A stretch of DNA of 64,000 bases from Dehalococcoidia bacterium (GTDB taxonomy: Bacteria > Chloroflexota > Dehalococcoidia > Bin125). The position numbers were made by a program, and so were the translations under genes. Location: NCBI GenBank assembly GCA_963663235.2, contig CAXXNO010000012.1, positions 407,333-471,332 on the forward strand. Reading direction: 5' to 3'. Every line of letters begins with the position of its first letter. Position 1 is the first letter of the stretch. The notes beneath the pieces were generated by a model. It was not told the DNA's origin. It did no database searches and saw nothing but the letters and a program-made list of their open reading frames with translations. Below are positions 22,332 through 55,226 of the stretch, piece after piece.

Positions 22332-22368
22332 CGCACGCGCCAAGGCCGCTGATCCACTCTGTCTGCCT

Positions 22369-33316: not shown

Positions 33317-34378
33317 ATGATCTGGATCGCCGTCGCGCTGGCAGCCGCCGCTGTCTGGGCGCTCTCCAGCACGCTGCTCGCCTCGCAGACAAAACAAGTT
33401 GACACGATCTCTATCAGCGCCCTGCGGGCGTTCTGGGCAATCCCATTCTTCGTGGCTGCGCTGTTCGCCTTCGGGGCCCAGAGCGATATCGCCAAGATGA
33501 GCCTCGGCGACATCCTGCAAATCTTCGGCCAAGGTGTGGTGGGCCCCACATTGGGTGACACGCTCTACGTCGCCGCGATCGCCATGCTGGGGATGACGCG
33601 GGCGTTCACTACCGTCATGGGGCTGTATGGCCTGATGGCCTACGTTTGGGCGGCGATCTTCCTGGGCGAGTCGGTCTCCTGGGAGGTCGCGGCTGGATCA
33701 GTCTTGGTGATCACGGGCGTGTACCTGGTGGCGCTTTACGGCCGGCCGCGAGGCACCACGGCCCCCGAGCCGACCCGCCGTTGGGCGTGGGCTCGCCGGC
33801 GCAAGCCGTCCAGCATCGCGGGGGGCAGCGGCGCCGAAAAGGGGCGCATAGCGGCGCGCTCCACGCACGCGGCTCCATCAGAGTCCCGCAGTCCTCCGCC
33901 TCCTCAGCGCGATGCGATTCCTCTGCCGTGGGGCGGCTCGCTCCGGCCGCGCGTCGGCCTGGGCATCGCGGCGGCGCTCTTGGTCGGCCTGCTCTGGTCG
34001 GGATCGTCCGTGTGGCTGCGCAGCATCTCCGACGGGGTCGATGCGTCGGCGGTGGGGATGGTGCGCGTGCCGTTCATCGCGATGATCTTGCTCGGTGCGT
34101 CATGGTTCGTCCGCGGCTCCACGCTTCGGCGGAACAGGATCTCGCTGCGCAGCCACTGGGTCTTAGCGCTGTCCGGCATCATCGGCACCGGCCTCACGAC
34201 GCTCTTGTTCATCCTAGCCATACAAGAGATCGGCGCGGGCCAGACCGTCGTCTTGTTCTCCACATCACCACTGTTTGCGCTGCCGATGGGATTCTTCTTC
34301 CTGCGGGAGAAGATCACCATCTGGGTGGTCGTGGGCACAGTCGTCGCCGTGGCCGGCATCATTCTGCTGGCCGCCTAG
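33317..34378 (+). CDS. DMT/EamA-family transporter
   Basis: Two EamA halves (IFLGE; FFFLREKI) with a long hydrophilic linker. Confidence 0.88.
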   Translation: MIWIAVALAAAAVWALSSTLLASQTKQVDTISISALRAFWAIPFFVAALFAFGAQSDIAKMSLGDILQIFGQGVVGPTLGDTLYVAAIAMLGMTRAFTTVMGLYGLMAYVWAAIFLGESVSWEVAAGSVLVITGVYLVALYGRPRGTTAPEPTRRWAWARRRKPSSIAGGSGAEKGRIAARSTHAAPSESRSPPPPQRDAIPLPWGGSLRPRVGLGIAAALLVGLLWSGSSVWLRSISDGVDASAVGMVRVPFIAMILLGASWFVRGSTLRRNRISLRSHWVLALSGIIGTGLTTLLFILAIQEIGAGQTVVLFSTSPLFALPMGFFFLREKITIWVVVGTVVAVAGIILLAA

Positions 34379-34524
34379 CCACCAGAAGCGCGGGGGCGTC
34401 CCCTGCATCTGATCACGGGCACTCAACCGGCGACTCGCTTGCCGAGCGGAGACCTGCGCGCCGATGAAGCCCACGCTACCCCCGATCGGGGTACGCACGC
34501 ATGGCCCCGCTTCCCCGTTTCGGC

Positions 34525-35487
34525 TCAGGCGCCGATCGTGATACCGAGCAACGCGGCTCTCACGCCACAAAGAGCCACGAGTGTAAGCAAGAGACGGTCT
34601 CGCATGAACACGCCGACCGGATCGCCCCCACCACCACGGCGCAAAATCTGGAGATAACGCGCGAGGCCAAACGCCATGAACGGCGGAATCGCGTAGAGCA
34701 CCCCTCCGACCGGAGCACCCTCATCACCAGACCACTGCACGGTCAGCGCGGTCCAAGCAGCGAGCGCACCGATCGCCCCCATCAGCACGAGGAGATCCAG
34801 CGCGCGCGGGCGATAGCATCGAAGGACGCCGCGATGTGCAACGGCCTGAGAGCCGAGCGTCATCAGTTCCGCCCGTCGCTTCCCTGCGACCAGCACGAGG
34901 GCCGCCAGGAGCACGCTGAGATCCAGCCACAGCGGGATCTCCACCCCGCCCGCCTCAGCGCCGGCGCGCAGGCGGAACGCGAAGCCCACGGCCACAATCC
35001 CTAGCTCCAGGTAGGGCACACGTTTCAGGCCAAGTGAGTAGACGAGGGCGATGGCCGCATAGCCGGTGGCCAGAGTCCCGACGGTGTGGTCCAGTGCGAA
35101 CGCCAAGGGCAGCGCGAGTGTCAACAGGACGGCCGCCACCACGAGAGCCAAAAGCGGCGAGAGGCGGCGCGAAGCAATAGGCCGTTGCCGCTTGACGGGA
35201 TGCACGCGATCGCCGGGAGCATCGATGACGTCGTTCACCAGATACAGCGCGCCGGCGACCAACGAGAACAGGCCGGCGGCGGCGGCCACGTGTAGCACCG
35301 GTCGAGTCCAGGTGCCCGGGTCGAACAGGGACCAGGCAACGCCGAGTGTCAAAACCGATGGCACAAAGAGCAGCACATTCTTCAGCCACTGGGAGGGACG
35401 CAGGGCCCGCACCAGCGGGCGTCCCATGTCCGCGCGCAGGGAGACGCTCGGACGCTCGACAATCCTGGCGCTCTCGTAGGAGGTCAT
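34525..35487 (-). CDS. Decaprenyl-phosphate phosphoribosyltransferase-like UbiA-family protein
   Basis: LRPSQWLKN, YLVNDVID..DRVHPVKRQRPIAS, YSLGLK, GFAFR, KRRAE, typical of the DPPR-synthase subfamily. Confidence 0.85.
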   Translation of the reverse strand: MTSYESARIVERPSVSLRADMGRPLVRALRPSQWLKNVLLFVPSVLTLGVAWSLFDPGTWTRPVLHVAAAAGLFSLVAGALYLVNDVIDAPGDRVHPVKRQRPIASRRLSPLLALVVAAVLLTLALPLAFALDHTVGTLATGYAAIALVYSLGLKRVPYLELGIVAVGFAFRLRAGAEAGGVEIPLWLDLSVLLAALVLVAGKRRAELMTLGSQAVAHRGVLRCYRPRALDLLVLMGAIGALAAWTALTVQWSGDEGAPVGGVLYAIPPFMAFGLARYLQILRRGGGGDPVGVFMRDRLLLTLVALCGVRAALLGITIGA

Positions 35488-37160
35488 TGCTCCGGAGGCC
35501 CGCGCTTGAGCCGGAACAGCTTCCAGTCTGGGCCCGTCCCCGGGAAGTCCAGCACCTTCACGGCGCGCCCGTTCAATTCCGGATAGATGTTCGGGTTCGC
35601 CTGGTGGATGGCATTGAATTCATCGGCGCCGACAGGATTTGGGAGCAATACCCAGTCCGCGAACTCCCACGGCTCCTCTACGGCATCCGCATAACCGGAG
35701 TGCGTGTAGTCAAAGACTGTGTCGCCCTCAAGACCGTAGCGAACTGCGAAGCCCGATCCAACGTAGTCCAGTAACACCCGCTCTCCGTCAGGGACCAATT
35801 GCTCGATCGTCTCCCCCACGGCCTTCCCTTCGGCCAGCGCGCGATCCGGTACCCGTTCACCTCGGAGCGCATCCCAGACGGTGGCCTCGACCTCCGTACG
35901 TCCGGACTCGCCCAGCGTGATCGCCCCGATCAGAGCGCCGAAGGCCAAAAGGACCAAGAGCATGCCCGCAGCCACAGGTCGAACGACATGCTGCCAGCGG
36001 TTCGGCCGCGGGAAGGCGATGAAGATGTACAGCATGGCGGGAAACGAGAGCGGAATCACCAGCGTGTACGGCCGAATCACCTCAACGCCGAACCCAGCGG
36101 CGAGCAGGACCGCTTGGGTGGCCGGCACCGTGATCACCAGGAGGCCCAAGCCCGCCCCCATGACCGAACGTCGCAAGATCCCGACGCCCAGCGCCCCGAG
36201 GCCAGCGATGATGGCGGTCGGGAACGCGATCATGGTGAGCCAGGAGGCCAGGCGGATGCCGCCGATGGCGCCCAAGGCGTCTTTCTCCGGCGCCAGCGTC
36301 AGCAGACCTTGGTCGCCATAGAGGAACCACAGCCCGTGGTCCTTGATCAGCCAACTCGCGACGATCCACAGCAGCATCGGGTAGAGCGCCGCCGCCAGAA
36401 ACGCGAGAACGACACCAAACCCTCGCGACGCACGAGTGAAATCGTCCGGCCAGCGAGGGGCCGGCTCCTGCCACACGGACCGGATCAACACCAGCGCCGC
36501 GGCCACCAGGGCTACGATCATCAGTTCATAGCGAGTAACGGTGGCAAGACCCAGCCAGATGCCGGCGAACACGACATCAGAGAGCTGACCGTCCCGGTTG
36601 TACTTCAGCAGACGATAGGCACCTCCGGCGAGGAACGCATAGGCGATCGGTTCACTCACGCTCACCATGGCCATCGCGACGACAACCGGGTTGAGGATGA
36701 AGAGCGCGGTGAACGCGATCCGCATTTGCCAGCCGAAGCCCAGCAGTGCGCAGGAACGCCAAATATGGAATGAGGCTAGCGCCATGAACACCGACGAGAC
36801 GATGCCAACGGCATAGAAGCTGGTGAAGAGCGGCTTGATCGCCGCGAACGGAATGAGAACGAGAGTGGGGATGGGCGGCAGGAGGAACCCAATGGACGCG
36901 AGCCGGCGCTCTTCACCGTGCGTGACGAGGTGTGCGCTCAGCAAACGGATTACCGAGTCGTCGCCGCGCAGTTCGCGATCGAAGATCAACCAGGCGGACA
37001 GCGAGAGAAACAGGATCAGGACCAGGGCCGGGATGACCCAGGCCTCATTCCGCGCGATCCACGTATCACGGCTGCCGACGGCGGCGCGCCAGCGAGCCTC
37101 TGGCAACACGCGAGGGAGCGGGCGAGGCGGCGCTGAGCCGAGGCGACGCTCCACGCTCAT
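35484..37160 (-). CDS. GT-C fold membrane glycosyltransferase (family 39-like)
   Basis: GD..R loop, IGFLLPPIP, LNP, SEP, TRYE; many TM helices and a C-terminal extracytoplasmic domain. Confidence 0.75.
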   Translation of the reverse strand: MSVERRLGSAPPRPLPRVLPEARWRAAVGSRDTWIARNEAWVIPALVLILFLSLSAWLIFDRELRGDDSVIRLLSAHLVTHGEERRLASIGFLLPPIPTLVLIPFAAIKPLFTSFYAVGIVSSVFMALASFHIWRSCALLGFGWQMRIAFTALFILNPVVVAMAMVSVSEPIAYAFLAGGAYRLLKYNRDGQLSDVVFAGIWLGLATVTRYELMIVALVAAALVLIRSVWQEPAPRWPDDFTRASRGFGVVLAFLAAALYPMLLWIVASWLIKDHGLWFLYGDQGLLTLAPEKDALGAIGGIRLASWLTMIAFPTAIIAGLGALGVGILRRSVMGAGLGLLVITVPATQAVLLAAGFGVEVIRPYTLVIPLSFPAMLYIFIAFPRPNRWQHVVRPVAAGMLLVLLAFGALIGAITLGESGRTEVEATVWDALRGERVPDRALAEGKAVGETIEQLVPDGERVLLDYVGSGFAVRYGLEGDTVFDYTHSGYADAVEEPWEFADWVLLPNPVGADEFNAIHQANPNIYPELNGRAVKVLDFPGTGPDWKLFRLKRGPPEQ

Positions 37161-37236
37161 GGCTGGCGCACCGGTAGCGCATTATCGCGATGGGATTGGA
37201 GGCCCGCCCAGAGCGGCAGGCCGGGCCGCAGCGACC

Positions 37237-37461
37237 TCAGGCGACCTCGGAACCCCTTGGAGGTATCGACGACGGTCGCGGCCGGCCGCGATGGAGCCAG
37301 TATCGCTTCCGATCGGTGCGCACGACGAGAAGCGTGATGAGGCCGATCGGACCCCAGATGCCGCCAAGGAGTGCGCCGACGATCGGCGAATCGCCCAGCC
37401 GCCAAGCCAGCAACAGGCCCATTACAGCGGATACTAGCGGGATCACAACAACGAACAGCAT
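37237..37461 (-). CDS. Small two-TM membrane protein
   Basis: MLFVVVIPLVSAVMGLLLAW...GALLGGIWGPIGLITLL; SD GAGGG. Confidence 0.55.
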   Translation of the reverse strand: MLFVVVIPLVSAVMGLLLAWRLGDSPIVGALLGGIWGPIGLITLLVVRTDRKRYWLHRGRPRPSSIPPRGSEVA

Positions 37462-37550
37462 GGCGTCCCTCGCGTCCTGGGATAAGCATTCTATTCCATT
37501 CCATCTGGCCGGCCAATCGCTCGCTCCGAACGAGCAGCGCCGCGTATCCC

Positions 37551-37918
37551 TTACGCGGCGGACGCATTGCGGGTCAGCAGGGCCACCCCCCCGGCGATGA
37601 TTGCGATTGCCAGCCAGCGGGTCGGCGGCACCCGCTCGCCCAGGGCCCAGGCGGACAGGATGACGACCGCGACGTAACCCAGGGCCAGCATCGGATAAGC
37701 CACGTTGAGGGGAGCCCCGATAGCACCCAGAGCCACAAGACGAGCGAGAGGCCGTACGCCGCAAGGCCGCCCCAGATCATCGGCGCTGTCAGCGCATCCA
37801 CGACCACATCCATGGGGGCGCGTCCATCGCCATCACCGACGCCCTGTTTGAAGGCCAGTTGCCCGGCCACGCCCAGCCCAATCGATCCGAACAGCGGTAG
37901 CAACCATGCCAACATCAC
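37551..37918 (-). CDS. SMR/ArnEF-like lipid-linked sugar flippase, split by a one-base deletion at about 37710
   Basis: GQLAFKQG...WLWVLSGLP joins LNVAYPMLALGYV...LGE when one C is added to a C4 run. Confidence 0.78.
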
Positions 37919-39705
37919 ACACCCCCTGCGCGATCCAGCTCCGAGGCAAGCGCGCCTGCCACTTCCGAGCGGCCGTCTGACGGCACATCGTCCGCGTCGG
38001 ACGGCCCGATGACGCGGAACAGCCGATGCTGGGAGCCGCTCTCCGGGAAGTCGGCCACCAACTCCACGAAGCCTTCACTCCCCTCGTAAAGGTCGGGATA
38101 GATGCGATAGATCAAGTTGCGGTCCGGCTCATTGATCTTGGACGCGCCCACCAGGATGTAGGTCACGCCACTGCTGTAAGGCCGGTGCACGAGATCGTCG
38201 TAATCGCGGTCCGTATTGATCACCACCCGATCGCGGTGTTCGATGTCGAACAGCAACAGAATCGTCTGGGTGGCGTCCACAAGGAGCAGATCGTCCGGCT
38301 GGAGAACGTCGTTGATGAGACCGGCCACGGGAGCGTTGTCGTCCCGCCAAGAGACCGCGGATTTGCTGAACAGCCCGTTGCTCGGCTGGCCATCCGTGTA
38401 GAGGCCGTTGTCCGCCATGGAGAACGCAATGGTTGCGGCTGAACCGATTACCACCGCACCGAGCCCGGCGGCGCTGAGCCATTGCTGCCGCGCGTGCGAT
38501 CGCGCTGTCCAGACCAGGTAGGCCAGCACCACGAGCCCGAGTGGAGTCGCATGGTTCCAGTTGCGGAGATAAGGCGGAAGCGTCCCTGTGTAGGTCTGGG
38601 CCGCCTGCGCGACCGGCACAGACAAGCTGAGTGCGAGCAGCGCAAGCGCCATGCGGTCATGCCGCGCCACCACCCGCCAGACAAGGAAGGGCACCGCGAT
38701 AAGGAACGGCGCCGCGGCCTGCAGCATCTTCAGGCTTGCCTGCGTGATCGTGCCGAAGACCGAGCCCTGCGCGGCGAAGAAGTCATTAATCGGACCCACG
38801 ATGCGCGCCACATCCAAGGCGTTCGCCGTCGAATAGGCGGAGTTCAGGTAGAAGAAGGGGTCACCCTGGATCTGGTAGTTCAGCCATGTCCACAGCGCGA
38901 CGGCCCACAGCAGCGGGGCCGTCAACGTGACCAAGGAAGCGGCGATAAAGGGCGAGCCCTCGCGGGGCGCGCTGCGGAAATGCACCAGCAGGGCCAGCAC
39001 CGCCGCGAACGCGACCGTCTCGTAGCGCGCCAGAAACGCGAACGCGAGCGACACGCCCGCCACGATGAGCGTGGAGTGGCTCCCTTCGCGCTCCCAGCGC
39101 AGCACTTGGTACAGCGCGAGGAGCACGAAGAAGATCCCCATCACCTGCGTCATGCCGTTGGCGGAGTACAGCCAGATCAGAGGGTTCAGGCTCCAAGCCA
39201 GGAGCCACGCCACCTGCCAGCCGCTGGACAGACCCCAATGGGCCAGCACGCGGCGCATCACCACGAGGGTACCGGCGCCGAAGATCACCGAGACCACGGG
39301 TCCCGCGTACAGGGTGAGCCCAATGGGTGTGAGGATGGGGAGCAGGGCCAGCCTGAGCAGTGTTGGCAGAGGAGGCCAAACGAAGCCGATCGCCCCCAGA
39401 TGGGGATCGCGGCTGCTGAGCACGCTGACGGCATCGAACGTGCGCGTGAGGGAATCGCCGGGCTGCCTCTCCCAGATCTCGACGACAAGCACGGCGAGAG
39501 CCAAGTACGCGGCTAGGGCAACGATGAAGATCCCGACGTCCCCGCGCACGAGCGCCAGCAGACCCGGCCGATCGGCGTCCCCCGAGGCGACGGCCTGAGC
39601 GCCCCGTGCGGCGCGCGTGTACGTGGTCGATTGGACGGCGGCCCGGATCCCTGCCCGAGTGGACGTCACCGAGAGCGCCGGCAGCGGTAGCGGCCTGCGG
39701 TTCAC
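37915..39705 (-). CDS. GT-C fold membrane glycosyltransferase (family 39-like)
   Basis: GDSLTR, SRDPHLGAIGFVWPPLP, LNP...NGM, ARYE; paralogous to 35484-37160. Confidence 0.78.
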   Translation of the reverse strand: MNRRPLPLPALSVTSTRAGIRAAVQSTTYTRAARGAQAVASGDADRPGLLALVRGDVGIFIVALAAYLALAVLVVEIWERQPGDSLTRTFDAVSVLSSRDPHLGAIGFVWPPLPTLLRLALLPILTPIGLTLYAGPVVSVIFGAGTLVVMRRVLAHWGLSSGWQVAWLLAWSLNPLIWLYSANGMTQVMGIFFVLLALYQVLRWEREGSHSTLIVAGVSLAFAFLARYETVAFAAVLALLVHFRSAPREGSPFIAASLVTLTAPLLWAVALWTWLNYQIQGDPFFYLNSAYSTANALDVARIVGPINDFFAAQGSVFGTITQASLKMLQAAAPFLIAVPFLVWRVVARHDRMALALLALSLSVPVAQAAQTYTGTLPPYLRNWNHATPLGLVVLAYLVWTARSHARQQWLSAAGLGAVVIGSAATIAFSMADNGLYTDGQPSNGLFSKSAVSWRDDNAPVAGLINDVLQPDDLLLVDATQTILLLFDIEHRDRVVINTDRDYDDLVHRPYSSGVTYILVGASKINEPDRNLIYRIYPDLYEGSEGFVELVADFPESGSQHRLFRVIGPSDADDVPSDGRSEVAGALASELDRAGGV

Positions 39706-39850
39706 GCTGTCGCGCTCCCCTCATGCACGCGCACGACACCAGACCACCCGGCCCTGATCGCTACCGACGCGCGGCCCCCGCCCGGACACTTGAGCGGAGC
39801 CGACTGCACTACGTTCCGAAGTCTCGTCATGCGACGCACCAACAACGTCC

Positions 39851-40723
39851 CTACTGCGACAACAGCGCCCGGCTCGCAACGCGCATCTGAGACCGCCGGG
39901 CGAATTCCAAGGCCTGCTCGGCCTCGTTGATCAGATCGCCCACGGACACGGCATCTTCCGGAAACTCCGCCAAGCCGATGCGCACGCTGATGGCGAGATC
40001 CTGCTGGAGTCGCTCCACCAACCGCTCGGCGAGAATGCTGGCACCTGCGGACGGCGTCTCCGGGAGGATCAAGGCGAAGGCGGAGGGCGTGTGCTGGATC
40101 ACCTTGTCGGTGGTGCGCAGGATCCCGATCATCACCTCCACGACGCCGCGCAGCACGCGGTTCGCCTCGTCCGGGCCGCGATCCGACACGATCTGCGTCC
40201 AGTTCTCGATCCCCATCAGCATCAACGACAGCGAGTGATGGTAACGCCGAGAGCGCTCGTTCTCTTCGGTCAGCAGTTGCTGGCCGAAGCGGGGCTCCAG
40301 CGCGCCGGTGACAATATCGAAGCGGCTCAATTCACGGATTGCCTGACTCCGCGTGGCCAACTCACCGCGGACGTTCGCGCCGGCTGCGTGATAAGCCCGG
40401 GCCAAGAGCCACGCGCCCACCAGGGTCACAGCCATCACCGCGGCCGGCAGGATGCCGTCGTCCTGGAGGTCCAGGGCGGCCTGATTATCCGCGCGCGCGA
40501 TCATCACGATCGCGAAGGCCACAGCCGCGATCACGGCCGCAATCTCTACCGCGAACAAGACCGGGTGCGTCAGCACGGCGATCACGGCCACTGCCAGGAT
40601 GGCGACACCGAGCACCGCGAACTCGTCCTCATCAGTAACGAGCACCAGCACGCCAGCGCCGACAATTACCCACGCCGCCAAGCAGGCGGCCCAAAACTGT
40701 AAGAGCAGGGTGTACTTAATCAT
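39851..40723 (-). CDS. 4-TM protein with degenerate GGDEF domain (putative c-di-GMP receptor)
   Basis: DIVTG, ERSRRY..LSL, RTTD (RxxD I-site), active-site position reads TPSAF instead of GGDEF, ILPET, GLAEFP; start overlaps the upstream stop. Confidence 0.8.
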   Translation of the reverse strand: MIKYTLLLQFWAACLAAWVIVGAGVLVLVTDEDEFAVLGVAILAVAVIAVLTHPVLFAVEIAAVIAAVAFAIVMIARADNQAALDLQDDGILPAAVMAVTLVGAWLLARAYHAAGANVRGELATRSQAIRELSRFDIVTGALEPRFGQQLLTEENERSRRYHHSLSLMLMGIENWTQIVSDRGPDEANRVLRGVVEVMIGILRTTDKVIQHTPSAFALILPETPSAGASILAERLVERLQQDLAISVRIGLAEFPEDAVSVGDLINEAEQALEFARRSQMRVASRALLSQ

Positions 40724-42944
40724 GTTCCAGTTCCTCGCTGGAGCGATCCACGCGCCACAAGTGCAGCCCGAGTAACGCCAGGCCGAAGACACCCAGCGCC
40801 GCGACCACGGCCGCTATCACCTTGTCGTCAAAGTCCAGGCCGCCGTCGTCGTCGCCTTCGCGGTCGACGTCTGTGATATTGGCCGTGAGCGCCTCCGTGA
40901 TCTCGGCGGCGGTGCGGGGAAACGTTTCGACCTTGTCGCGGGCGGTCACCACCGTGAGGGGCCCACTGGCCTCCAGGCGGCCGAGGGCCCGTCTCCCCCA
41001 GAAGAGGCCGTCTCGGGACGTGCCTGTGACGACCAGAAGCGATTTCTCGGTGTTCCAGGGTGAGGGGGCGACCATCAGCACGCCCAGTTCCGCCTCCGGA
41101 TCGATCCCGCGATCAAGCAGGACCTCGGTGCGCAAGATCCGGTCGGTCCCATTGACGAACTGGAGCGGCAGGCTGGCGCCCGCCTCGTTGATCAAGCCGA
41201 GGGCGCTGGGCCGCCCCACCAGGATTACATGGTGCCCCGCAAGGAGCGCGTCCGTGACTTCATCTTCCGGCACCACACGCAGCGAGAAGGGGTCCAGCCC
41301 CGAGTACGCGCCGAGGTCAAAGACCAAGCCGAACAACTCCTCGGGCTGCATCCCGGACGGCACGACCACCAAGGTCCCGCTGGGGTCACCGAACGCGTCC
41401 ATGAACGGCCACGGATAGAAGGTGAGATCGTGCAGGGGGATGACGTCCGTGCCCGGGAGGCGGATCCGGCTTTCGGGATGAATCTCCAGCCAGGCGCGTT
41501 CTTCCGCGAGTGGATCGTCCAGGCAAGTGTTGAAGGGCCCTTCCGGCTGGTCCAGGATATATAGGCCGGTGGCGAGGGTCAGTTCGTTCACACCCGGACG
41601 GATCGCCTCCGCCGGGATCGTGATGGGAATGGAGATCCGCTCGAAGCGGCCGTCGAAGCGGAGCGGAATGGTCTCCAGGTTCACGCCGTTCAGGATGATG
41701 AGCAGATTGGAGGGCTCCGGGTCCAGCTCACGCGAGAGGGAGACGATCAACTCCAGCTCGCCATCGCCGGTGGGCGCGGGCGCCAAGAACTGGATCGTGG
41801 CGAGGGCACCGCTGATGCCCCGCAGCTGGATGCCGAAGGGCGCCTGCAGGTCGGCGAAGGCGAACTGCACACCCCCGTCAAACGGTTGCCCGCGGACCGT
41901 CGCGCCGAGTGCGTCGCGGACGATGGCGAACTCGCCGGCCAGCGTATCCATCCCTTCGCTGCCGGAGACCGCCTGAGCCGCCCTGCTCAGCCCGACGGGG
42001 CCGTCGCCAGAGACGATCAAGGCGCCGTGCTTATCGCTGAACGGACTCACGGTCTCTTGCAGGAAGCCCACGCTCGGACCGGTGACGGTGGCGCCGGTGG
42101 ACGATACGTCGCCACTCACCACAAGCGGATTCCGCCCCGTGGTGCCGACACTGATGATCGACGCATCGGCGGTGGCTGCCGACGACGGTACGCCGATGTC
42201 GAACCGCACCGGCACAAAGAACGCAGCGCCCGGGCCTACGATCTGTCCGAGGCCACCCACGATTGAGGCCGCGGCCGAGAGCTCTGCGCTGTTCGGATTC
42301 GCCGGCAGCAGCACGTGCGTGTCGGTCTTGAAGGGGAAGGGAAGGCGCAGATATGGCTCGGGATAGTTCGCAAGGTTCGGCACGAAGATCGGGCGCGTGT
42401 CGTCAGGCACGTACTCGTAGTGCAGCAGCGTGGGACTTTCGATGAGCGTCCAGAGCGCCGGGTTCTCCGCGTCGTCGCAGAAATCCGTGAGGCGCATGAG
42501 GAAACTCAATCCGATCCGGTTGAACAGCGGATCCAGGAGGCGGGCCGGTAGGTCCACCGTGATCGTCGTGGATTCGATGTTGATCTCGTCGAGCCGCACG
42601 GATGTCAGAGAGGAATCGTTCAGCAACACCGTCATGGTGGAGAGATCCGGGCGCAAGAGCGGCGAGTGGCTGAACGTCAGTTGCAAGAAATGACCAGACG
42701 GCTCCAGCACCCAGCCATCCGGACCGGGGAAGAAGATCTCCACGGTGGCGATGATCCCTCGCGCGACGACGTCTCTGATCTGCAAGTCAATCAAGGTGAC
42801 GTCTTGTGGCGGTGGATCGTCGGCGTGCAGTGACCGCACGCTCACGGCGGTCGCGCTCACAGCGACGGCCAGTAGCGCCACCGCAAGCAAAATCCTGCTG
42901 GACACCCGTCGCCAGACTTTGTGATTATTCGGTGCGTGCACCAC
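40716..42944 (-). CDS. BcsB-like polysaccharide synthase partner subunit
   Basis: Signal peptide; twofold repeat (FSHSPLL..DLSTMTVLLN / SNLLIILNG; LANYPEPY / LTFYPWPF; SPF / SPWN); C-terminal TM anchor; SD AGGAGG. Confidence 0.8.
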   Translation of the reverse strand: MVHAPNNHKVWRRVSSRILLAVALLAVAVSATAVSVRSLHADDPPPQDVTLIDLQIRDVVARGIIATVEIFFPGPDGWVLEPSGHFLQLTFSHSPLLRPDLSTMTVLLNDSSLTSVRLDEINIESTTITVDLPARLLDPLFNRIGLSFLMRLTDFCDDAENPALWTLIESPTLLHYEYVPDDTRPIFVPNLANYPEPYLRLPFPFKTDTHVLLPANPNSAELSAAASIVGGLGQIVGPGAAFFVPVRFDIGVPSSAATADASIISVGTTGRNPLVVSGDVSSTGATVTGPSVGFLQETVSPFSDKHGALIVSGDGPVGLSRAAQAVSGSEGMDTLAGEFAIVRDALGATVRGQPFDGGVQFAFADLQAPFGIQLRGISGALATIQFLAPAPTGDGELELIVSLSRELDPEPSNLLIILNGVNLETIPLRFDGRFERISIPITIPAEAIRPGVNELTLATGLYILDQPEGPFNTCLDDPLAEERAWLEIHPESRIRLPGTDVIPLHDLTFYPWPFMDAFGDPSGTLVVVPSGMQPEELFGLVFDLGAYSGLDPFSLRVVPEDEVTDALLAGHHVILVGRPSALGLINEAGASLPLQFVNGTDRILRTEVLLDRGIDPEAELGVLMVAPSPWNTEKSLLVVTGTSRDGLFWGRRALGRLEASGPLTVVTARDKVETFPRTAAEITEALTANITDVDREGDDDGGLDFDDKVIAAVVAALGVFGLALLGLHLWRVDRSSEELEHD

Positions 42945-42952
42945 GTCCCCTC

Positions 42953-44266
42953 CTATGCAACCGCCAGGGCAACCGCGAGCGTCCCGCTCCCGGTCACCGC
43001 CAGCGCCATTCCGATCGATGCAACGACTGCTGGCCGCGACCTGAACGGCAGCTGGCGATCGCCGCTCAGTGCACTCAGCGCCAGCAACACGACTACCAGG
43101 GCCGCCATCAGCGGCCCGATCAGTTGTCCCACGAAGGGCGTGGCCGTGATGCCAACCAGGGTCAGCAATCCAACCGCGAGTATGGCGAGTCCCACGAGAC
43201 CGGCGCCCGCTCCCGGATGTCCGCGACGGGCAGCCCACACGATCAGCGTCAGCAAGGGAAGGCCCGCCACGACGGCCGGCGCCGCGACCGCGATCTTCTC
43301 AGCGAACGACCAACCACCGATCGTGTTGCCCAGATCGGCGAAGGCGCCGCCGAACGCGCTCCACCAGACGCTCTGCGAACCGATGGCGAGCAGCGGGTCG
43401 CGGCCGCTCACCAGGTCGGCGAGCGCAACCACCCGGGTCCAAAGCACCGCCACAGCCGCGAAGACGACCGGCACGAGGTAGGCCGAGAGAACCGCCTCCA
43501 CGGCAGCGCTCCGTTGGATCCCGTCGCGGTCGTCCGCGGGCGTCGTCAGCCGGCGCAGTGTGCGTGCTCGCATGAAGAGCACGGCCAGGATCGCCAACGC
43601 CACGGGCACGACCGCATACCACATCATCAGCGTGAGCCCCACGAAGAACCCGGCGGTGACCACCGGCCCCGCTTCTCGCGATGGCGCCCAGCGCCAGAGC
43701 GCCGGTACCACGGCGATTGCGAGCAGGACCAGCGCGACCGTGGCGGATCCCGCTCCGGCCGTGAGCAGCACCAGTGGATTCACGAAGAACGCCGCCCAGA
43801 TCAGCCAGCGCAGGGGACGGCTCAGACTGAGCGACCGCAGCAGCGCCAACAGCATGGCCGACGCGATGGCCAGTACGAACGCGGCGGCAATCGGATCGGC
43901 AAGGCTGTGGCGGTCGATGGTATCTACCGCGGCGAAGGGAGCCCGCAGCAAGGCCCAGACGGGAGCCCAGGTCTGCGCCGCCCAGGTGTCGGCCTGGTAA
44001 TCCAGCGCGAGCGCGCGCCAGGATACGAGCGCGTCCTGCCACGCAGCCGGCAAGGGGCTGTGCCCCGGAAACGCCAAGAGCAACGCGGCCAGCAAGACGA
44101 GTGCGGGCGCCAACACCAGAGCCACCCAGATCTCACCGTGGGGCAGGACGACGGCCGCGCGCGGCCGCTCGATCATGCGGGCGGCCAACGCCGCCGGGCT
44201 CTGCGAGACCGGGGTGAGCGTGGGCGGCGCCATTTGCGGCTCAGCGCTGGAGACGAAGGTCGACAT
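42953..44266 (-). CDS. Multi-pass membrane protein, distantly GT-C-like
   Basis: About 11 hydrophobic segments; FVNPLVL motif shared with the two GT-C genes. Confidence 0.6.
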   Translation of the reverse strand: MSTFVSSAEPQMAPPTLTPVSQSPAALAARMIERPRAAVVLPHGEIWVALVLAPALVLLAALLLAFPGHSPLPAAWQDALVSWRALALDYQADTWAAQTWAPVWALLRAPFAAVDTIDRHSLADPIAAAFVLAIASAMLLALLRSLSLSRPLRWLIWAAFFVNPLVLLTAGAGSATVALVLLAIAVVPALWRWAPSREAGPVVTAGFFVGLTLMMWYAVVPVALAILAVLFMRARTLRRLTTPADDRDGIQRSAAVEAVLSAYLVPVVFAAVAVLWTRVVALADLVSGRDPLLAIGSQSVWWSAFGGAFADLGNTIGGWSFAEKIAVAAPAVVAGLPLLTLIVWAARRGHPGAGAGLVGLAILAVGLLTLVGITATPFVGQLIGPLMAALVVVLLALSALSGDRQLPFRSRPAVVASIGMALAVTGSGTLAVALAVA

Positions 44267-44275
44267 GTACGTGCC

Positions 44276-46898
44276 CTACCGTCTCTCTGTACCCACGGAC
44301 ACGACAACTTCGCCTCGGAAGAGGCCGTGCTCGGTCTTCTCCCAATAGAACGGCCGGAAGATCAGTTGGTATGCCGCCTTCCAGGCCGCCACGCTCATCA
44401 AGATCCAGTACAAGGGACTGATCAGGCCCCACTTCACCAGGCCGTAGTAGCGGCGCCGAAGGGCTCCGGCCATGGCGACATAGGCGAAGGCGAAATTACC
44501 GAAGTAGAGGGTCACGGCTCCCATGAAGAAGATGGGCGTGGGAAAGAGATCATTGATGAAGTCGGGTCGGAAGACCAGCCAGATCACCGTGATCGTCCAG
44601 AAGATCGGATTGGCCAGGAAGCCGAAAATCGTTCCCGCCATGATCATCTGGAACGAGAAGAAGCCGTACGTGCCGAGTTCGCGCCACAGCTTGATCGGCC
44701 GACGCATATGCACCAACCACGTCTGCATGTAGCCCTTCACCCAGCGGGAACGCTGGCGGATCCAGTTGCCCACGGCGGAGTTGGCTTCCTCGAAGGTCGT
44801 GGAGTCGATTACCGCGGTGTTCCAGCCGCGCTTGAAGATCCGCAGTCCCACGTCCGCGTCCTCCGTGACGTTGAAGGGGTCCCAGCCACCGACCTCGCGG
44901 AGCCGATCGGTCTTGAAGTGATTCGATGTGCCGCCGAGGGGAATCGGCGCGCCCGTTCCGTCCAGCCCCGGCATCAGCAGGTCAAACCACATGGAGTACT
45001 CGCTGGTGAACCAGCGCGTGAGGATATTCTGGTTGCGATTGAAGTAGTTCAGTTTGGCCTGCAGGCACACGTACTCATCCGGCAACTTCCGGAACGCCAC
45101 CACGGCCTTCCGTAGCTGGTCGATCTCGGGCACGTCTTCGGCGTCGTAGATGACCAGATACTCCCCGCGGGCGTGGAGCAGACCGTAGTTACAGGCCTTC
45201 GGCTTCCCTTTCGGATCGCCCTGCGGCACGATCAGCATCTCCATGTGCGGCGGAAGGCGGAGGCGGCGCACGGCCTCTACGGTCTCCGCGTCGTCCTCTT
45301 CCAGGATCACCTTGATGTCCAGTTTGCTCCGCGGATAATCGAGCGAGTTCAGCGCAGAGACGACCAGCGGCACGATCTGCGGTTCTCGATACATCGGGAC
45401 CAGCACGGTATAGATGGGGAGCGAGGCGTCTCCGAGTTCGGCGAGCTCTTCCTTGCTCGTTGGGACCTCGAACTCGTGTCCCAATGCTCGATAGATGAGG
45501 TAGAACTTGTACGACGAGAACGCCGTGTAGAAGGCAGCGGCGGCGCCGAACAACACCTGCAGCGTGATCTTCCAGTCCAGCAGCAGTCCCAGCACCACCA
45601 GCGCCCCGATACCCGCTGCCCAGAGCAACTGCCTCTTCGTGAATACGGTGGACGCCGAGTCTTCGGGGAAGCGGACCAGGAGCTCCGTGGCCGCCCGCTC
45701 CACGTACTCCGCCCGATAGATCCGCTCAAGGACCTGTTCAATCGCCTCCTCGGAAGCCCACACCGGCTGCACCGGCTGTCCGACCTCGCGCCGGATGGTC
45801 TCCAGCGCCGCGGTATTCAGTGGATCGGACATGGCCACCGTGATCCCGCTGTCGGTGACGAAGATCGGAATCGCCAGGTAACGACGCGCCGTGGCTTCGC
45901 TCAGGCGTCGCACGACCTGTTCCTCGGGTTCCATCTCGGCAAGGTCGAAGAAAGGGACCTCGTGCTGCTCGGCGAGAAAGGAAGCCAGTTGCTCGGCCGT
46001 GATGTAGCGCAGCTCGCGCAGCGCCTGCCCGAGGCGCACGCCAGTCGCGCGGCTCAGGCGCAAAGCATGCTGCAGTTCGGTGCGCGAGATGATTCCCGCC
46101 AAGCGCAGATGCTCTCCCAGCGAAAACTGTCCGTTGACGCGTTTGGTCGCAGCGCGCACTTCACCGCGCGGCGCAGCGACGACCGTGATCGGCGAGGACA
46201 GGGCCTCTTGCACTGCAGCCCTCGCCGCCTCGTCCGTGGGGTCGGCGAACGCGACGGTCAGCCGTCCATCCCGCTCCTCGTATGAGATGGCCACGTGTTG
46301 CTCGGCGATGGGCCGTGGCAGATGATAGGCAGCGGCCGGGTCCACCGGATCGACTGTGATGGTCTGGATGCTGCGCACGCCGACGGCGTCCACGACCTCC
46401 CGAGCCTCCTCGCGCAAATCGAGTGAGACGAGCGGGACGCCGGCCACCTGTGCCATTTCAGCCGCGACATCAGCCGGCATGAGCGTCGACGCGGCGAGCA
46501 CTGCCTCGTCGCCCGGAAGGCGCTCGTCCACCACTAGATGCCAAGCGCGGACGCGGTCCGCCGGCGAGAGTTTGCCCGCCTGAACGAGCCGGTCGGTCAG
46601 CAGATGCACTGAGGACGGCACCTCACCGCGGTCCACGCCGCGGGAGGCCGCCGCCATGGCGAATTCCCCGGGTGGCGCCACCGCCGCGAGCACTGGCCGC
46701 CCGATGCGATCGCTCAGCGCTCGCACGCGCTCCGGCGCGGGGTCCGTGAAGGCGATCGTGACAACGCCATCATCCCACCGCAGAGGGCAGGCCTGGAACT
46801 CCGCCACGTCAGCTTCGGAGAGGTGGCGGAGAACGGTGCGGTCGGGCAGCCAGCGCAGCGGCGACACATTCGGCAGCCCGTAGCTAATCGCCCGGGCT
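44276..46898 (-). CDS. Processive GT2 polysaccharide synthase with tandem N-terminal MshEN/T2SSE_N domains, 5' end cut by IS
   Basis: VLVPMYRE, KPKACN, YDAED, TED, QRSRW, WEKTEHG; MshEN motif SLGEHLRLAGII...RLGQALRELRYITAEQLASFLAEQ; three AFxDP/AMSDP repeats; ORF-track start lies inside the IS. Confidence 0.88.
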
Positions 46899-46965
46899 TG
46901 ACCTGCCCCCCCAGAACCGGTCCAGATCCTGTGCGAGGATTCGGGCCGGTGCGAAGGGAGTCGGC

Positions 46966-47244
46966 ATGGCACGCAAGCGGTACGCGGCCGAGGAGATCAT
47001 CGGCCACCTGCGGGAGGCGGAGGGGGTGCTCGCGCCGGGGGAATCGGTCGCGCCGGTCGCGCGCCGCCTCGGCGTGGCCGAGCCAACGTATTACCGCTGG
47101 CGGCGGGAGGACGGGGGGCTGCGGGTCGACCAGGCCAAGCGGCTGAAAGAACGGGAGCGCGAGAACAGTCGGCTGAAGCGGGTGGTGGCCGATCAGGCGC
47201 GGGACAACGCGATGGTGCGGGACGTCGCAGCGGGAAACTTCTGA
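46966..47244 (+). CDS. IS3 transposase OrfA (HTH)
   Basis: MARKRY..EEII..LRE...TYYRWR...ENSRLKRVVAD. Confidence 0.88.
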   Translation: MARKRYAAEEIIGHLREAEGVLAPGESVAPVARRLGVAEPTYYRWRREDGGLRVDQAKRLKERERENSRLKRVVADQARDNAMVRDVAAGNF

Positions 47245-48083
47245 GCCCGGCCAAGCGGCGCCGGGCGACATCCTACCGCACGGACCCGTACGCGGTGGCG
47301 GAGCGGCGGGCCTGCCCGGTCACCGGCCAGGCGCGGGCGACCCAGCGCGACGTGCCCCGGCCGTCCCCGGATGCGCCGGCGCTGATCGCGCGCAGCGTCG
47401 CGCTGGCCACCCGCTGCGGCCGCTACGGCTCCCGTCGCATCCCGGCCCGGCTGCGCCAGGCGGGCTGGCGGGTGAACCCCAAGCGGGTCGAGCGGCGCTG
47501 GCGTCAGGAAGGCTGGCGGGTCCCCGGGAAGCACCCCCAACGGGGCCGCCGCTGGCTCGCGGCCGGCTCGCGGGTGCGGCGGCGGGCCGAGCGGCCGTCC
47601 CACGTCTGGTCCGACGCCTTCGTCTTCGACCGCACCGCCGAGGGGCGCCCGGTGCGGATCCTCGCCATCGTGGATGAGGACCACCCGCGAGGGCCTGCGT
47701 CTCGACGTCGCCCGCCGACGGCGCCGCGACGTCGAGGCCTGGCGCGGTTGGCCCAGCTGTTCGTCGAGCGCGGGCCGCCGACGTTTCTGCGGTCCGCCAA
47801 CGGCCCGGCGTTCACCGCCACCGCGGTGCGGGACTGGCTGCACCGGGTCGGGGGCACGACCCGCTTCATCGAACCGGGCAGGCCTTGGGCGAACGGCTCT
47901 GGGGAATCGTTCAACGGCAAGCTGCGCGACGCGTGCCTCAATCGCGAGCGCTTCGACACCCTGCTGGAAGCCCAGATCCTCATCAAGGGCTGGCGGCGGG
48001 AGGACAACCCGATCCGCCCCCACCGTGCCCTCGGCTCCCGCCCCCCGCCCCGGAAACGCAGCAACCCCGGAAACGTCCCATGA
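47241..48083 (+). pseudogene. IS3 transposase OrfB, catalytically dead
   Basis: rve core recognisable (ESFNGKLRD, RPH) but DDE aspartate positions read Ala (WSDAF, RSANGPAF); local frame disruption at about 47680-47740. Confidence 0.85.
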
Positions 48084-48141
48084 CGCGCGTCCCGGCGATC
48101 GGACGAACTTAACGACTGGTACAACGATCGGGGGCAGGTCA

Positions 48142-48462
48142 CTTCAGTAGGTAGCTCTTGGCGCCGGCGCGCAGCGCCTCGAAGACGTAGCGGTCTTCGT
48201 CATAGTTCGAGAGGATGATCACCTCCGTGGCGGGGAACTCCGTACGAATACGACGGGTGGCCTCCACGCCGTCCATCCCACTCATGCGCACGTCCATGAG
48301 GACGACATTCGGGCGGAGGGCCTGTACTTTCTCGAGGGCCTGCTGGCCGTCCCCGGCCTCCCCCACGACTTCAAGATCAGGCGAGAGTGCGGTCATCTTG
48401 CGCAAGCCCTCGCGAATCACCGGGTGGTCGTCGACGATGAGGAGCGAGATGCGAGCCATCAT
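48142..48462 (-). pseudogene. NarL-type response regulator truncated by IS
   Basis: LIVDDHPVIREG, VLMDVRM, GAKSYLLK then a stop supplied by the IS end; last helix and HTH missing. Confidence 0.88.
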
Positions 48463-49980
48463 TCGACCTCCGGTCTCGGAATCGCCACTTCAATAATCGT
48501 CCCTACGTTGGGCTGGCTCACTATCGCCGCGCGTCCGTGCATGCGCGCGGCGCGCTCCCGCATGCCGGCCAGGCCGAAATGGTGTGAGGAGGCGGCTCCC
48601 GTGAGCGCCTCGTCGACCGGAAAGCCGACGCCGTTATCCTCCACGCTCACGGCGATGAAGTCTTCCGCAAACTCGACGGCGGTGCACACGGCCGAGGCGC
48701 GCGCATGCTTGTTCACGTTGAGCAATGCCTCCCGCGCGATCAGGAACAAGCCCTGCTGGATTGATTCCGGCAGCTGGACCGGCTCGCCCTCCACCACGAA
48801 GTCAAGTTGCAGGCCGTTGGTTCGGGCGAAATCCTCCGCATAGTCGCGCAGCGCCTCGCTCAGTCCAAGATCGCCGACGTTGGCCAGCCGCAGATCAAAG
48901 ATGAGACTGCGGAGCTGACTGATCACCCGTCTGACCTCATCCCGGACGTTCTGGATCGAGAGCGCGGCCCCGCGAGAATCCTGCTCCAGAACTCGCAGAG
49001 CCAGCTCGCTCTCAATCACGGCGCTGGTCAGCTGCTGGACCGGGCCGTCATGGAGCTCACCGGCCAAGCGTCGCGATTCGGCAGCTTGCAGTGTCTGCAA
49101 GTCGATACACCGATCTGCGTTGACGTCACTTCCCGTCAGCCGCTCGGCGAGCGTTCCCGCGGCCTCAGTATCGACGGTGTCGAAGGGCCGCTCCATCGGA
49201 TCGAAGAAGGCGAGGACACCGGCCTCGCCGTACGTGGCGGCGAGGGGGACAGCGAGCAGATCCACCACGCCGGCGCTCTGGAGGCGATCGCGTGCCGGAT
49301 AATCGTCCGTAATGAGCGGTCGCCGTTGAAGGGCAACAGGCGAGTGAGAGACTCGCGGGCGGCGACGCGAGCGGGCTCGGAGTCCTCGCCGGGCCACTCC
49401 ACGTAGCGGCACGCGCCCGTGGCGGTGGGGATCAGCGCGGTGACGCGAGACGCCCGCAGGAGCCGTCCGACGAGGCTGAGATCCCAGCCGCTCACGGTGG
49501 CCTCGCCCGAGGTCGGCGCCCAACGACCACCGACGTCCGCCACCACGACGATGTCCCCCGCGAGAGCGTCCACGGCTTCTGCCACCGACGCGGCCATCCT
49601 CAGGCGGGCCAGCACAGGGCCGAGGGTCGTGGCGAGACCCTGGAGCAAGCGAGCGCGCCCCTCCATGCGGTCCTGCGGCCCGCCGATCATGACCAGTTCG
49701 CCGAACGGCTCCTCCATGGGGAGCACCTGCCGCAGCACGAGGCGGATGGATCCGGACTTATCGGGCCAGACACGCATCGACGCGCCGTTCACCGACGCAT
49801 CCGCCCGGAGCTGGGCGACGGCCTCATACCACTCGCTGGGGAAGGGCCGATCCGGGTCATCGTACAGCCGGTCGTCCCCAGGACCAGCCCCCCCACGTCG
49901 CAGGCCGTGAGCGAGCGCGCAGCGCGCACGACGCCGGATAAGAAGGGACGCAACTCCGGCGTGGAAAAGTCTACTGGCAT
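48459..49980 (-). CDS. HisKA_3 (NarX-type) sensor histidine kinase with GAF-like region, split by two frameshifts
   Basis: ESRRLAGELHDGPVQ, REALLNVNKHA, DNGVGF, FGLAGMRERA; three ORFs join by adding one base at 49876-49879 and one at 49331-49333. Confidence 0.8.
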
Positions 49981-50190
49981 CGCTTTGGGCAGTCCTACGC
50001 CACGCTTTCCGACAATAGTCTGTCAGACCTTTATAGGATGTTCGGATTCGCGGGTTGCGTCAACGGCGACTCTGGCGGCCTCACGAGGGTGGACGACCCC
50101 GGGGCCCGACTTGGCCCACCGGATGCACCCGTCTAGACTATCGCCCGTCGTGCCTCCGGACTTCCCCGTAGCGCCGCCGTCGGACCGCCA

Positions 50191-52897: not shown

Positions 52898-53158
52898 GAC
52901 CCATTTATCCCCGCGCCGCAATGGTCCCGACGCGCCAGCATCGGCGGGCGGCGGGGGCGTCCGTAGCCTTCCTGCGTCCGGATGGTGAAGGAACCGTAGG
53001 GGGGCGCAGGCGTTTTCTAGTGGGACGCGGCGGACGCCGCCGCGGCAGGTGTGGTCTTGCCCGCTCCGCGAGAGTCGGTAGGCTGGAAGATGGTCGGTGA
53101 CATGACGTCAGTCCGAGCGGCGCGCGGCATGCTGGTGGGGTAATGGGACTGGGTGCGA

Positions 53159-55151: not shown

Positions 55152-55226
55152 AGCCGCCAGCGGGGATATTCCGCGCGTCCCACGGCTTCCGCCACACCGG
55201 CGGCCAAGCAGAGAGGGAGGATCGGA

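Follow-up and report, generated by a model that had tools for sequence, protein, structure and literature searches.

A Dehalococcoidia gene cluster for a putative c-di-GMP-activated exopolysaccharide synthase with GT-C partner proteins

We analysed a 64,000-nucleotide stretch of a Dehalococcoidia bacterium genome (GenBank assembly GCA_963663235.2, contig CAXXNO010000012.1, positions 407,333 to 471,332; hereafter the window, with positions counted from its first letter), and in it a cluster of nine genes at 34525-46898 that contains a glycosyltransferase family 2 (GT2) protein of the XagB-like synthase type. Our preferred reading, to which we give about an even chance, is that the cluster is a horizontally acquired locus for a synthase-dependent exopolysaccharide (EPS) that would be activated by cyclic di-GMP (c-di-GMP), decorated by glycosyltransferases of the GT-C fold and served by a private supply of lipid-linked pentose. 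The new part seems to be an unnamed PMT_2-related family of GT-C proteins that partners this GT2 family. The sequenced strain has a synthase gene cut by an insertion sequence (IS) and a frameshifted flippase gene; the machine is probably off or altered there, and sibling populations hold intact alleles.

Gene content of the cluster

Nine co-oriented genes had been proposed from the letters and open reading frames (ORFs) alone (hereafter the sequence-only reading). All nine are present, on the minus strand and tightly spaced with several short overlaps, in the order GT2 > memb437 > BcsB > GGDEF > GTC596 > ArnE-like > 74-aa ORF > GTC558 > UbiA (aa, amino acids). The open-frame run on this strand spans 34525-46972, and in this 66% GC genome the third-position GC of the frames identifies them as coding. 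The features of the cluster and of the elements adjoining it are as follows (TM, transmembrane; AF2, AlphaFold2).

34525..35487, minus: UbiA-family prenyl-phosphate phosphoribosyltransferase-like protein, 320 aa (Pfam UbiA, 67.6 bits)
35484..37160, minus: GT-C-like membrane protein GTC558, 558 aa (homology to GTC596; NCBIfam LA_3751/LA_3752 family, E 1.4e-5)
37237..37461, minus: 74-aa ORF that may encode a small 2-TM protein, weak support (codon-position GC 0.68/0.52/0.72; two hydrophobic stretches)
37551..37915, minus: ArnE/ArnF-like flippase gene (EamA-type, 4-TM) with a frameshift near 37715-37718 (three-frame translation)
37915..39705, minus: GT-C-fold membrane protein GTC596, 596 aa, with a C-terminal extracytoplasmic domain (AF2 and Foldseek)
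39851..40723, minus (ORF to 40792; likely start M24): 4-TM degenerate GGDEF protein (Pfam GGDEF, 60.3 bits; N-terminal hydrophobic segments)
40716..42944, minus: BcsB-family subunit; with the GTG at 42944 as start, about 742 aa (ORF to 43238; Pfam BcsB, 153.8 bits, cut-off 21)
42953..44266, minus: divergent GT-C-like membrane protein memb437, 437 aa, without a C-terminal soluble domain (profile comparison)
44276..46898, minus: 3' 874 codons of the XagB-like synthase-type GT2, comprising part of MshEN-like domain 4, domains 5 and 6, the TM region and the GT2 domain
45965..46123, minus: sole canonical c-di-GMP-binding MshEN motif pair, GT2 residues 284-336 (NF053729, 46.4 bits, cut-off 38)
46899..48141, plus: IS3-family insertion sequence, 1243 bp (orfA 46966-47244, orfB 47295-48083; Pfam HTH_Tnp_1, rve_3, HTH_21)
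48142..48462, minus: response-regulator receiver domain cut by the IS, 107-aa ORF (Pfam Response_reg only, 98.9 bits)
48459..49523, minus: GAF / HisKA_3 / HATPase_c histidine kinase (Pfam)

GT2 and memb437 are separated by 9 nt, and memb437 and BcsB by about 8 nt if BcsB starts at the GTG at 42944; BcsB overlaps GGDEF by 8 nt when the latter starts at M24 (40723), and 4-nt overlaps link GTC596 to the ArnE-like gene and GTC558 to UbiA. The larger gaps in the cluster measure 145 nt (GGDEF to GTC596), 89 nt and 76 nt. Scanning for promoters and terminators returned three promoter-like and seven terminator-like sites, not above shuffled sequences and none of them usefully positioned. The small membrane protein of the sequence-only reading corresponds to the doubtful 74-aa ORF, for which codon-position GC support is moderate and Pfam and NCBIfam searches returned no family.

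As judged by Pfam, the synthase combines a GT2 domain (Glyco_trans_2_3, 78.2 bits; Glyco_tranf_2_3, 77.1 bits) with three MshEN stretches (143 bits), and its catalytic motifs read DAED at 609, TED at 703 and QRSRW at 740. Domains and motifs alike support the processive GT2 with a QxxRW motif that had been claimed; the gene, however, is not whole, position 46898 being an IS junction. The intact protein P0001 from another assembly (1272 aa) differs from the window GT2 by three residues only over the common part, and P0001, P0002 and P0012 each have six MshEN-like domains according to an iterated domain profile; in the GT2 ortholog of G027, a genome of the same class, Pfam itself reports six MshEN stretches. 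When all MshEN-like domains are aligned, the RLG...Q motifs are confined to domain 6, and the arrangement used as the MshEN criterion (two RLGxx..Q motifs of 24 residues in tandem with a 5-residue linker) is found in this domain and in none of the other five of the intact protein. Multi-MshEN sensing had thus been overstated: the membrane-proximal domain alone keeps the binding motif.

Two relatives of this gene differ in their surroundings or structure. The MshEN array and the GT2 of a Chloroflexia metagenome-assembled genome (L019:8005-12199) are encoded by two overlapping ORFs, 586 aa and 833 aa long, which represent a split form or else a frameshift. At a Nocardioides locus, a cellulase-family gene of glycoside hydrolase family 5 (GH5) lies immediately 5' of the MshEN-GT2 gene (L040:8323-9540), and this neighbour hints at a beta-glucan-like backbone there.

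The Pfam score bears out the predicted BcsB-like subunit, which has TM segments at residues 18-36 (N-terminal) and 709-727 (C-terminal). All NCBIfam BcsB equivalogs score it far under their cut-offs (best 86.7 vs 750 bits), and it is no equivalog of proteobacterial BcsB. The 4-TM degenerate GGDEF protein with an RxxD had also been recognised correctly: it reads RTTD-KVIQH-TPSAF, with the RxxD five residues upstream of the degenerate motif. Since TPSAF replaces GGDEF and RTTD is kept, the active-site motif is degenerate and the inhibitory site (I-site) intact. Relatives of this protein were detected by tblastn in the G027, L019, L024 and L015 clusters; the genome has eight GGDEF loci, and the seven outside the cluster score 71-162 bits. 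The two types of c-di-GMP sensor that had been proposed for the locus, one canonical MshEN motif and one degenerate GGDEF protein with RxxD, are therefore both recognisable, their sensing being predicted from motifs; on paper, the locus is regulated by c-di-GMP.

GTC596 and GTC558 are paralogous (25% identity over 521 aa, E 1e-16). Searches of PDB sequences with the GT-C family, by single sequences and by profile, gave no match, and a fold search was therefore needed. The AF2 model of GTC596, made from an alignment (A2) of the window proteins with 25 relatives from other loci, has a predicted local distance difference test score (pLDDT) of 80.7 and a predicted template-modelling score (pTM) of 0.83. 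Compared with the PDB by Foldseek, it returned GT-C-fold chains at all of ranks 1-43 (best E 2.4e-6, template-modelling score ~0.5), including STT3, ArnT (5f15), ALG12, DPY19, AglB, Pmt4, PglB, AftA/B, Emb and also PIG-U of the GPI transamidase. The two clear GT-C proteins of the sequence-only reading stand, GTC596 by its modelled fold and GTC558 by homology, although neither reaches the Pfam gathering threshold. In the first outer loop, the column of D84 holds D or E in 27 of 27 family members, and R88 is kept in 26 of 27.

The third, 437-aa protein had been called a weak GT-C. For memb437 there is no Pfam or NCBIfam match, a word-based homolog search returned memb437 alone, and four weak relatives were found among 1.84 billion representatives; compared with the GT-C family profile by hhalign, however, it aligns over residues 44-299 (probability 97.9%, E 4.2e-13), which ties it to the family. 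Its AF2 model (pLDDT 76.5, from an alignment dominated by the GT-C family) has GT-C proteins in the top Foldseek rows (PglB, E 3.1e-3), none of them below 1e-3, and memb437 may be a divergent, C-terminally short paralog of the family. A quick tree places GTC558 nearest the GT2-adjacent GT-C of L024 (Shimodaira-Hasegawa-like approximate likelihood ratio test, SH-aLRT, 99) and GTC596 nearest that of L020 (92); because its rows were drawn from GT2 loci or from matches to the 437-aa protein, the tree shows subfamily and not association. The 20 proteins returned for the GT-C profile are labelled 'hypothetical protein' (10) or unnamed (10), and none has a functional name.

Two lesions and their alleles

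The sequence-only reading missed two lesions, an IS-truncated GT2 gene and a 1-bp frameshift in the ArnE-like gene. The GT2 open frame (898 aa) extends past the IS junction to a GTG at 46972, inside the IS, and its first 25 codons are IS end, which match many places in the genome. P0001 and the window GT2 agree from 'ARAISYG' on, that is, from residue 26 of the window frame (46897). When residues 1-420 of P0001 were searched against the whole assembly by tblastn, residues 399-420 alone were found and the first 398 were not. On the other side of the IS, Pfam detects no output domain in the 107-aa response-regulator ORF. With a receiver lacking its output domain on one side and a 5'-cut GT2 on the other, a segment appears to have been lost at the IS site: the IS-associated deletion would have taken the synthase's 5' 1.2 kb (398 residues) and the regulator's output half.

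The IS has expanded in this 2.75-Mb genome, as judged by its at least 12 full-length copies. Eleven full-length copies besides the one in the cluster share 96.9-98.7% identity and the same ends as 46899 and 48141, several contigs end in the IS, and the end of the window contig itself (63540-64000) is IS, 99% identical over 461 nt. IS depth is 20-400x that of the flanks in all four public runs considered below. The locus L019 has a complete HisKA_3 kinase and a REC-GerE regulator beside its cluster; by this parallel, the kinase and the cut response regulator of the window are probably the regulator pair of the cluster and may control the EPS genes.

The ArnE-like gene falls into an N-half (37718-37915) and a C-half (37554-37715) in different frames. 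The C-half matches ArnE (NF011625, E 5e-8), EamA (PF00892, E 6.3e-5) and also ArnF, and the N-half gives a weak ArnF match (E 0.094) in register. Of the flippase of the small multidrug resistance (SMR)/ArnEF-like type that had been claimed, the ArnE-like type holds, and its coding sequence is spread over two frames.

Contigs of four public runs (X7, X10, X11 and X12, the last three from one study) were aligned to 34001-50000; as these are contigs and not reads, rare variants are invisible, and short joints, with 20-35 letters to a side, were taken for repeat or foreign matches and set aside. In X7 both IS junctions are present, the contigs stopping 27 nt into the IS. The contigs of X10, X11 and X12 reach 46899 and continue for 319, 638 and 1054 non-IS letters, respectively, and towards the regulator X12 continues for 1448 letters beyond 48142. 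X12 is also the only run with an additional base after 37717, X7, X10 and X11 having the window reading; by codon arithmetic, this base puts the ArnE-like halves in one frame. The result is an allelic series in which X12 is free of both lesions, X10 and X11 combine the frameshift with an uninterrupted GT2, and X7 and the window carry both lesions. Both the GT2 truncation and the ArnE-like frameshift are real and polymorphic.

Partnership of synthase and GT-C proteins, and origin of the locus

Scanning one genome per species for the GT2 yielded 584 relatives, and the best 80 loci were kept. With a family hidden Markov model (HMM), a GT-C member was found in 69 of these 80 loci across phyla, adjacent to the GT2 by our criterion in 45 and elsewhere in 24; the 11 loci with none include several on short contigs. 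By tblastn, counting the 77 of the 80 loci with at least 1.5 kb of flank, a GT-C relative was found in 45 (31 directly downstream, 14 elsewhere) and none in 32; BcsB was found by tblastn in 13 of the best 80 loci and GGDEF in 3. Sampled in reverse, the GT-C profile matched 43 of 301 Chloroflexota genomes, and of the 29 best Chloroflexota GT-C loci outside G000, 21 have the GT2 in their 1.5-kb flank. The co-occurrence in relatives that had been expected of the cluster's genes is thus seen for the GT2/GT-C pair and, apart from one locus, not for UbiA.

In G027, a 48%-identical GT2 precedes a pair of GT-C-like genes, BcsB and a GGDEF-like gene, in that order, and no UbiA lies within 30 kb of this cluster. 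L019 has the same order, GT2-GTC-GTC-BcsB-GGDEF, followed by its kinase and regulator. Directly 3' of the GGDEF-like gene of the G027 cluster there is a gene for a 2589-aa FG-GAP/RHS-repeat protein (L011:17-7783). At Paenibacillaceae loci (L075:13497-14525, L059:13498-14469, L071:12076-13038 and, in two copies, L046), a ~340-aa PgfS/ArnC-like GT2 stands beside the GT2/GT-C pair. It matches PgfS (E ~1e-72) and ArnC end to end, below cut-offs, and is predicted from these matches to be of the polyprenyl-phosphate sugar synthase type.

UbiA homologs occur, at E 1e-20 or better, in 260 of 401 Chloroflexota genomes, a count that takes in three genomes flagged unpublished (G264, G182 and G077). Eight other Chloroflexota UbiA neighbourhoods hold no member of the GT-C family by tblastn and are of housekeeping character, 4 of the 8 having an FtsJ-like methyltransferase as a neighbour. 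That cluster-bearing genomes use a housekeeping UbiA was considered, as 3 of 5 such genomes have UbiA elsewhere, but the idea was dropped, there being no phylum-wide enrichment.

The locus is, on the evidence of gene distribution, horizontally acquired as a block, because GT-C and UbiA are absent from 40 genomes of the same GTDB family (0 real matches in 40 for either; one weak UbiA match, E 1e-4) and the GT2 from 24: the GT2 proper was found in 0 of 24, the matches in 3 genomes being to the IS-derived N-terminus only. The borders of the island could not be set because the flanking EamA transporter and NTP-transferase genes are separated by ~130 kb to 720 kb where both are present (three relatives) and are missing in 2 of the 5 searched. 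Elsewhere in the window there are three tandem luciferase-like monooxygenase genes (20002-23574; Pfam, 195-214 bits), a pair of ORFs with sortase domains that overlap each other (53153-54283 and 54030-55151) and precede the gene for a 646-aa protein without a Pfam family (the whole at 53153-57167), and a gene (60557-62995) whose 812-aa product joins a class II aldolase domain to a short-chain dehydrogenase.

Donor sugar, competing explanations and known systems

The UbiA protein, present as a single copy in the genome, had been likened to decaprenyl-phospho-5-phosphoribose (DPPR) synthase, and the comparison with the solved M. tuberculosis enzyme (PDB 8j8j) corroborates this: residues 20-310 align with 12-293 of 302 (E 3.8e-29), and the NDxxDxxxD...HPxKRxRPIA stretch is aligned as well. 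Its top NCBIfam families are three decaprenyl-phosphate phosphoribosyltransferase models (NF008978, 164.4 bits, E 2.9e-48). The hallmark of DprE1 is an ALO domain, which accompanies FAD_binding_4. We found no DprE1-type ALO domain (PF04030) in this 91.9%-complete genome, in a search for which the C. glutamicum control was positive and which did not extend to DprE2 and the DPPR phosphatase. Of the two donors that had been suggested, arabinose or ribose, arabinose is therefore unlikely and ribose (ribofuranose) is favoured.

From the gene identities, folds, lesions and gene associations described above, we infer how the polymer may be decorated, which sugar is donated and that the kinase/regulator pair takes part in regulation. 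In the proposed mechanism, the membrane GT2 synthase would polymerise and translocate the chain, and the BcsB-family subunit would guide it outside. The 4-TM degenerate GGDEF protein would sense c-di-GMP at its RxxD, the last of the six MshEN-like domains being the synthase's own putative sensor. The three GT-C proteins, acting at the outer face, would most likely use polyprenyl-phosphate-linked donors to attach side sugars to the polymer as it emerges; such decoration had been claimed before, and the PgfS/ArnC-like synthases beside the GT2/GT-C pair in the four Paenibacillaceae loci are indirectly consistent with it. At the window locus, UbiA would make polyprenyl-phospho-(5-phospho)ribose from phosphoribosyl pyrophosphate (PRPP), the ArnE-like protein would flip the UbiA-derived lipid-linked sugar, and the sugar transferred would be ribofuranose and not arabinofuranose.

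Several observations weigh against this reading. UbiA was found in 1 of the 80 GT2 loci (tblastn) and in 0 of the 29 Chloroflexota GT-C loci. It is present in 31 of 42 GT-C-positive Chloroflexota genomes as compared with 259 of 400 overall, which is no enrichment, related genomes in these counts not being independent; the GT-C family is therefore not generally dependent on UbiA. The UbiA protein scores under the NCBIfam equivalog cut-offs (NF008978, 164.4 vs 207; NF008977, 151 vs 234; NF008976, 129.7 vs 474), as do the ArnE-like halves (C-half, 33.1 vs 92 bits), and GTC596 and GTC558 stay under the Pfam PMT_2 gathering threshold (20.0 and 17.6 vs 26.1 bits), which relatives pass (L048, 35.3; L024, 33.2; the G027 protein, 39.8-40.8 bits). 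With the genome 92% complete, absence of DprE1 is not proven. Pfam searches found no PssZ/YdaJ-like glycoside hydrolase in the cluster. Finally, the 145-nt gap lies between the GGDEF gene and the GT-C/flippase/UbiA half, and that half may be transcribed on its own. What ties UbiA to the machine here is the 4-nt overlap with GTC558, the position of the ArnE-like gene between two GT-C genes, the common strand and the joint absence from relatives. As GT-C proteins accompany the GT2 almost everywhere without UbiA, the UbiA link is a peculiarity of the window locus and not the basis of the GT-C association; UbiA-fed ribosylation is plausible as an activity specific to this locus.

The 145-nt gap would also suit two unrelated systems standing side by side, a Pss/Yda-like EPS synthase (GT2, the 437-aa protein, BcsB and GGDEF) and a lipid-linked pentosylation system (GTC596, the ArnE-like protein, the small ORF, GTC558 and UbiA) that would act on a surface protein or wall polymer. 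Such an arrangement, which we regard as unlikely but as deserving attention, accords with the lack of UbiA in 79 of the 80 related GT2 loci and its lack of enrichment in GT-C genomes, and with the top fold matches of GTC596 being protein oligosaccharyltransferases and ArnT. It sits poorly with the fact that GTC596 and GTC558 belong to the very family that adjoins the GT2 in 21 of 29 independently sampled loci, that G027 and L019 hold two such GT-C genes between GT2 and BcsB, and that both halves, on one strand, are jointly missing from the 40 family genomes. We think it improbable that the GT-C proteins are ligase- or oligosaccharyltransferase (OST)-like enzymes, or structural co-subunits, that attach a lipid-primed polymer to a cell-surface acceptor, the UbiA product then being primer or anchor. 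The GT2/GT-C pair is near-universal even without a nearby donor synthase, the best fold matches are the en-bloc transferases STT3, PglB and AglB, and the first outer loop keeps an acidic residue, all of which would fit such a role; yet fold similarity at a template-modelling score of ~0.5 cannot discriminate donor type, and PgfS/ArnC-like synthases of monosaccharide donors lie beside the pair in four loci. Moreover, a need for a lipid primer is not known for QxxRW synthases of this kind.

That the cluster is a decaying, functionless remnant in the window strain, with a working machine in sibling strains only, we hold to be very improbable, even though the 398 codons and the regulator output domain lost in association with the IS, the flippase frameshift in 3 of the 4 runs and the expansion of the IS to at least 12 copies all point that way. 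The remaining GT2 frame is open over 898 codons and keeps all catalytic motifs and the canonical MshEN motif, the family has natural members of 752-926 aa that carry two MshEN-like domains, and the other seven genes are intact. This explanation is also one about activity and not about identity, and it overlaps the preferred reading of an acquired EPS locus with GT-C decoration.

The core of GT2, BcsB-family subunit and TM GGDEF receptor in that locus is of the characterised Pss/Yda type, as described in the available parts of PMC4125290 and PMC5422440. In Listeria, PssC is the GT2, PssD the BcsB ortholog and PssE the I-site receptor (PMC4125290, in part), and B. subtilis YdaK has 4 TM helices and an RxxD five residues upstream of a degenerate SDERI (PMC5422440, in part). 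Like the window locus, Listeria PssA-E and B. subtilis YdaJKLMN thus pair a GT2 and a BcsB-family subunit with a membrane-bound degenerate GGDEF protein that has RxxD five residues upstream and activates synthesis, a likeness of gene content and domain descriptions and not of compared reference sequences. Unlike the window locus, they show no MshEN array on PssC/YdaM and no GT-C, UbiA or ArnE-like gene in what is available of the same two papers, and they have a hydrolase (PssZ/YdaJ), of which the window cluster has none that we found. The sequence-only reading had not recognised the combination as a characterised pathway: the core triad is one, and its pairing with the GT-C family seems new.

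MshEN fused to glycosyltransferases has been noted before (PMC5013675, in part), and NfrB appears in the accessible text of PMC8669469. E. coli NfrB resembles the window protein as MshEN fused to a c-di-GMP-activated GT2 (NF008411, E 2.3e-17 over GT2 residues 283-438), but its MshEN is C-terminal (match at model positions 482-635 of 723), whereas the window-type GT2 has six N-terminal copies, five of them degenerate. Thermus PilF shares the tandem MshEN/GSPII array, there of three (PDB 6f8l, 3 stretches, E 3.7e-20), but is an ATPase and not a glycosyltransferase. The JGI label 'glycosyltransferase XagB' is carried by 2 of 27 GT2 relatives. Xanthomonas xagABCD leads to biofilm EPS (PMC3609779, in part), and in Ferriphaselus and Mariprofundus xagB has a BcsB gene ahead of it, bcsB-xagBCD having been proposed for stalk formation in iron oxidisers (PMC4643136, in part); unlike for the window, no UbiA or GGDEF receptor is described for xag systems in the available parts of these two papers, nor is the polymer defined there.

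On the donor side, the mycobacterial decaprenyl-phospho-arabinose pathway (Rv3806c, DprE1/E2, Aft/Emb) likewise combines a UbiA-type enzyme with GT-C enzymes, and AftA, AftB and Emb are among our fold matches. In contrast to it, the window genome has no DprE1-type ALO domain that we could find, its UbiA does not reach the equivalog cut-off, its GT-C proteins are PMT_2-related and its flippase is ArnE-like. Three-component glycosylation systems (ArnC/ArnEF/ArnT; GtrA/B/C; S. mutans PgfS with a GT-C) share the scheme of lipid-phosphate sugar synthase, small flippase and GT-C, but in the window the donor would come from a UbiA-type phosphoribosyltransferase, and the system forms part of a synthase-dependent EPS locus. 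In the literature outside subscription journals, we found no account of an N-terminal MshEN-array GT2 with GT-C partners, nor of a DPPR synthase in Chloroflexi.

For the window genome alone, the finding is modest, an acquired and partly broken EPS locus. The intact, frameshift-only and IS-deletion plus frameshift forms nonetheless amount to a ready natural genetic comparison, and a six-fold MshEN array with a single competent motif and a second c-di-GMP receptor in the same operon offers a tractable case of layered second-messenger control. Beyond this genome we propose, tentatively and with more doubt than belief, that the PMT_2-related GT-C family is an unrecognised core part of the XagB-like, MshEN-controlled synthase machine in Chloroflexota, Actinomycetota, Bacillota, Bacteroidota, Patescibacteria and Pseudomonadota. 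It would define a hybrid route in which an extruded polymer is modified or attached outside by GT-C proteins fed with lipid-linked sugars, the feed at this locus being polyprenyl-phospho-ribose without epimerisation. Synthase-dependent and lipid-carrier-dependent glycan assembly are usually held separate; a conserved pairing of QxxRW synthase and GT-C would join both, and it would assign a function to a large GT-C family that is now annotated as hypothetical.

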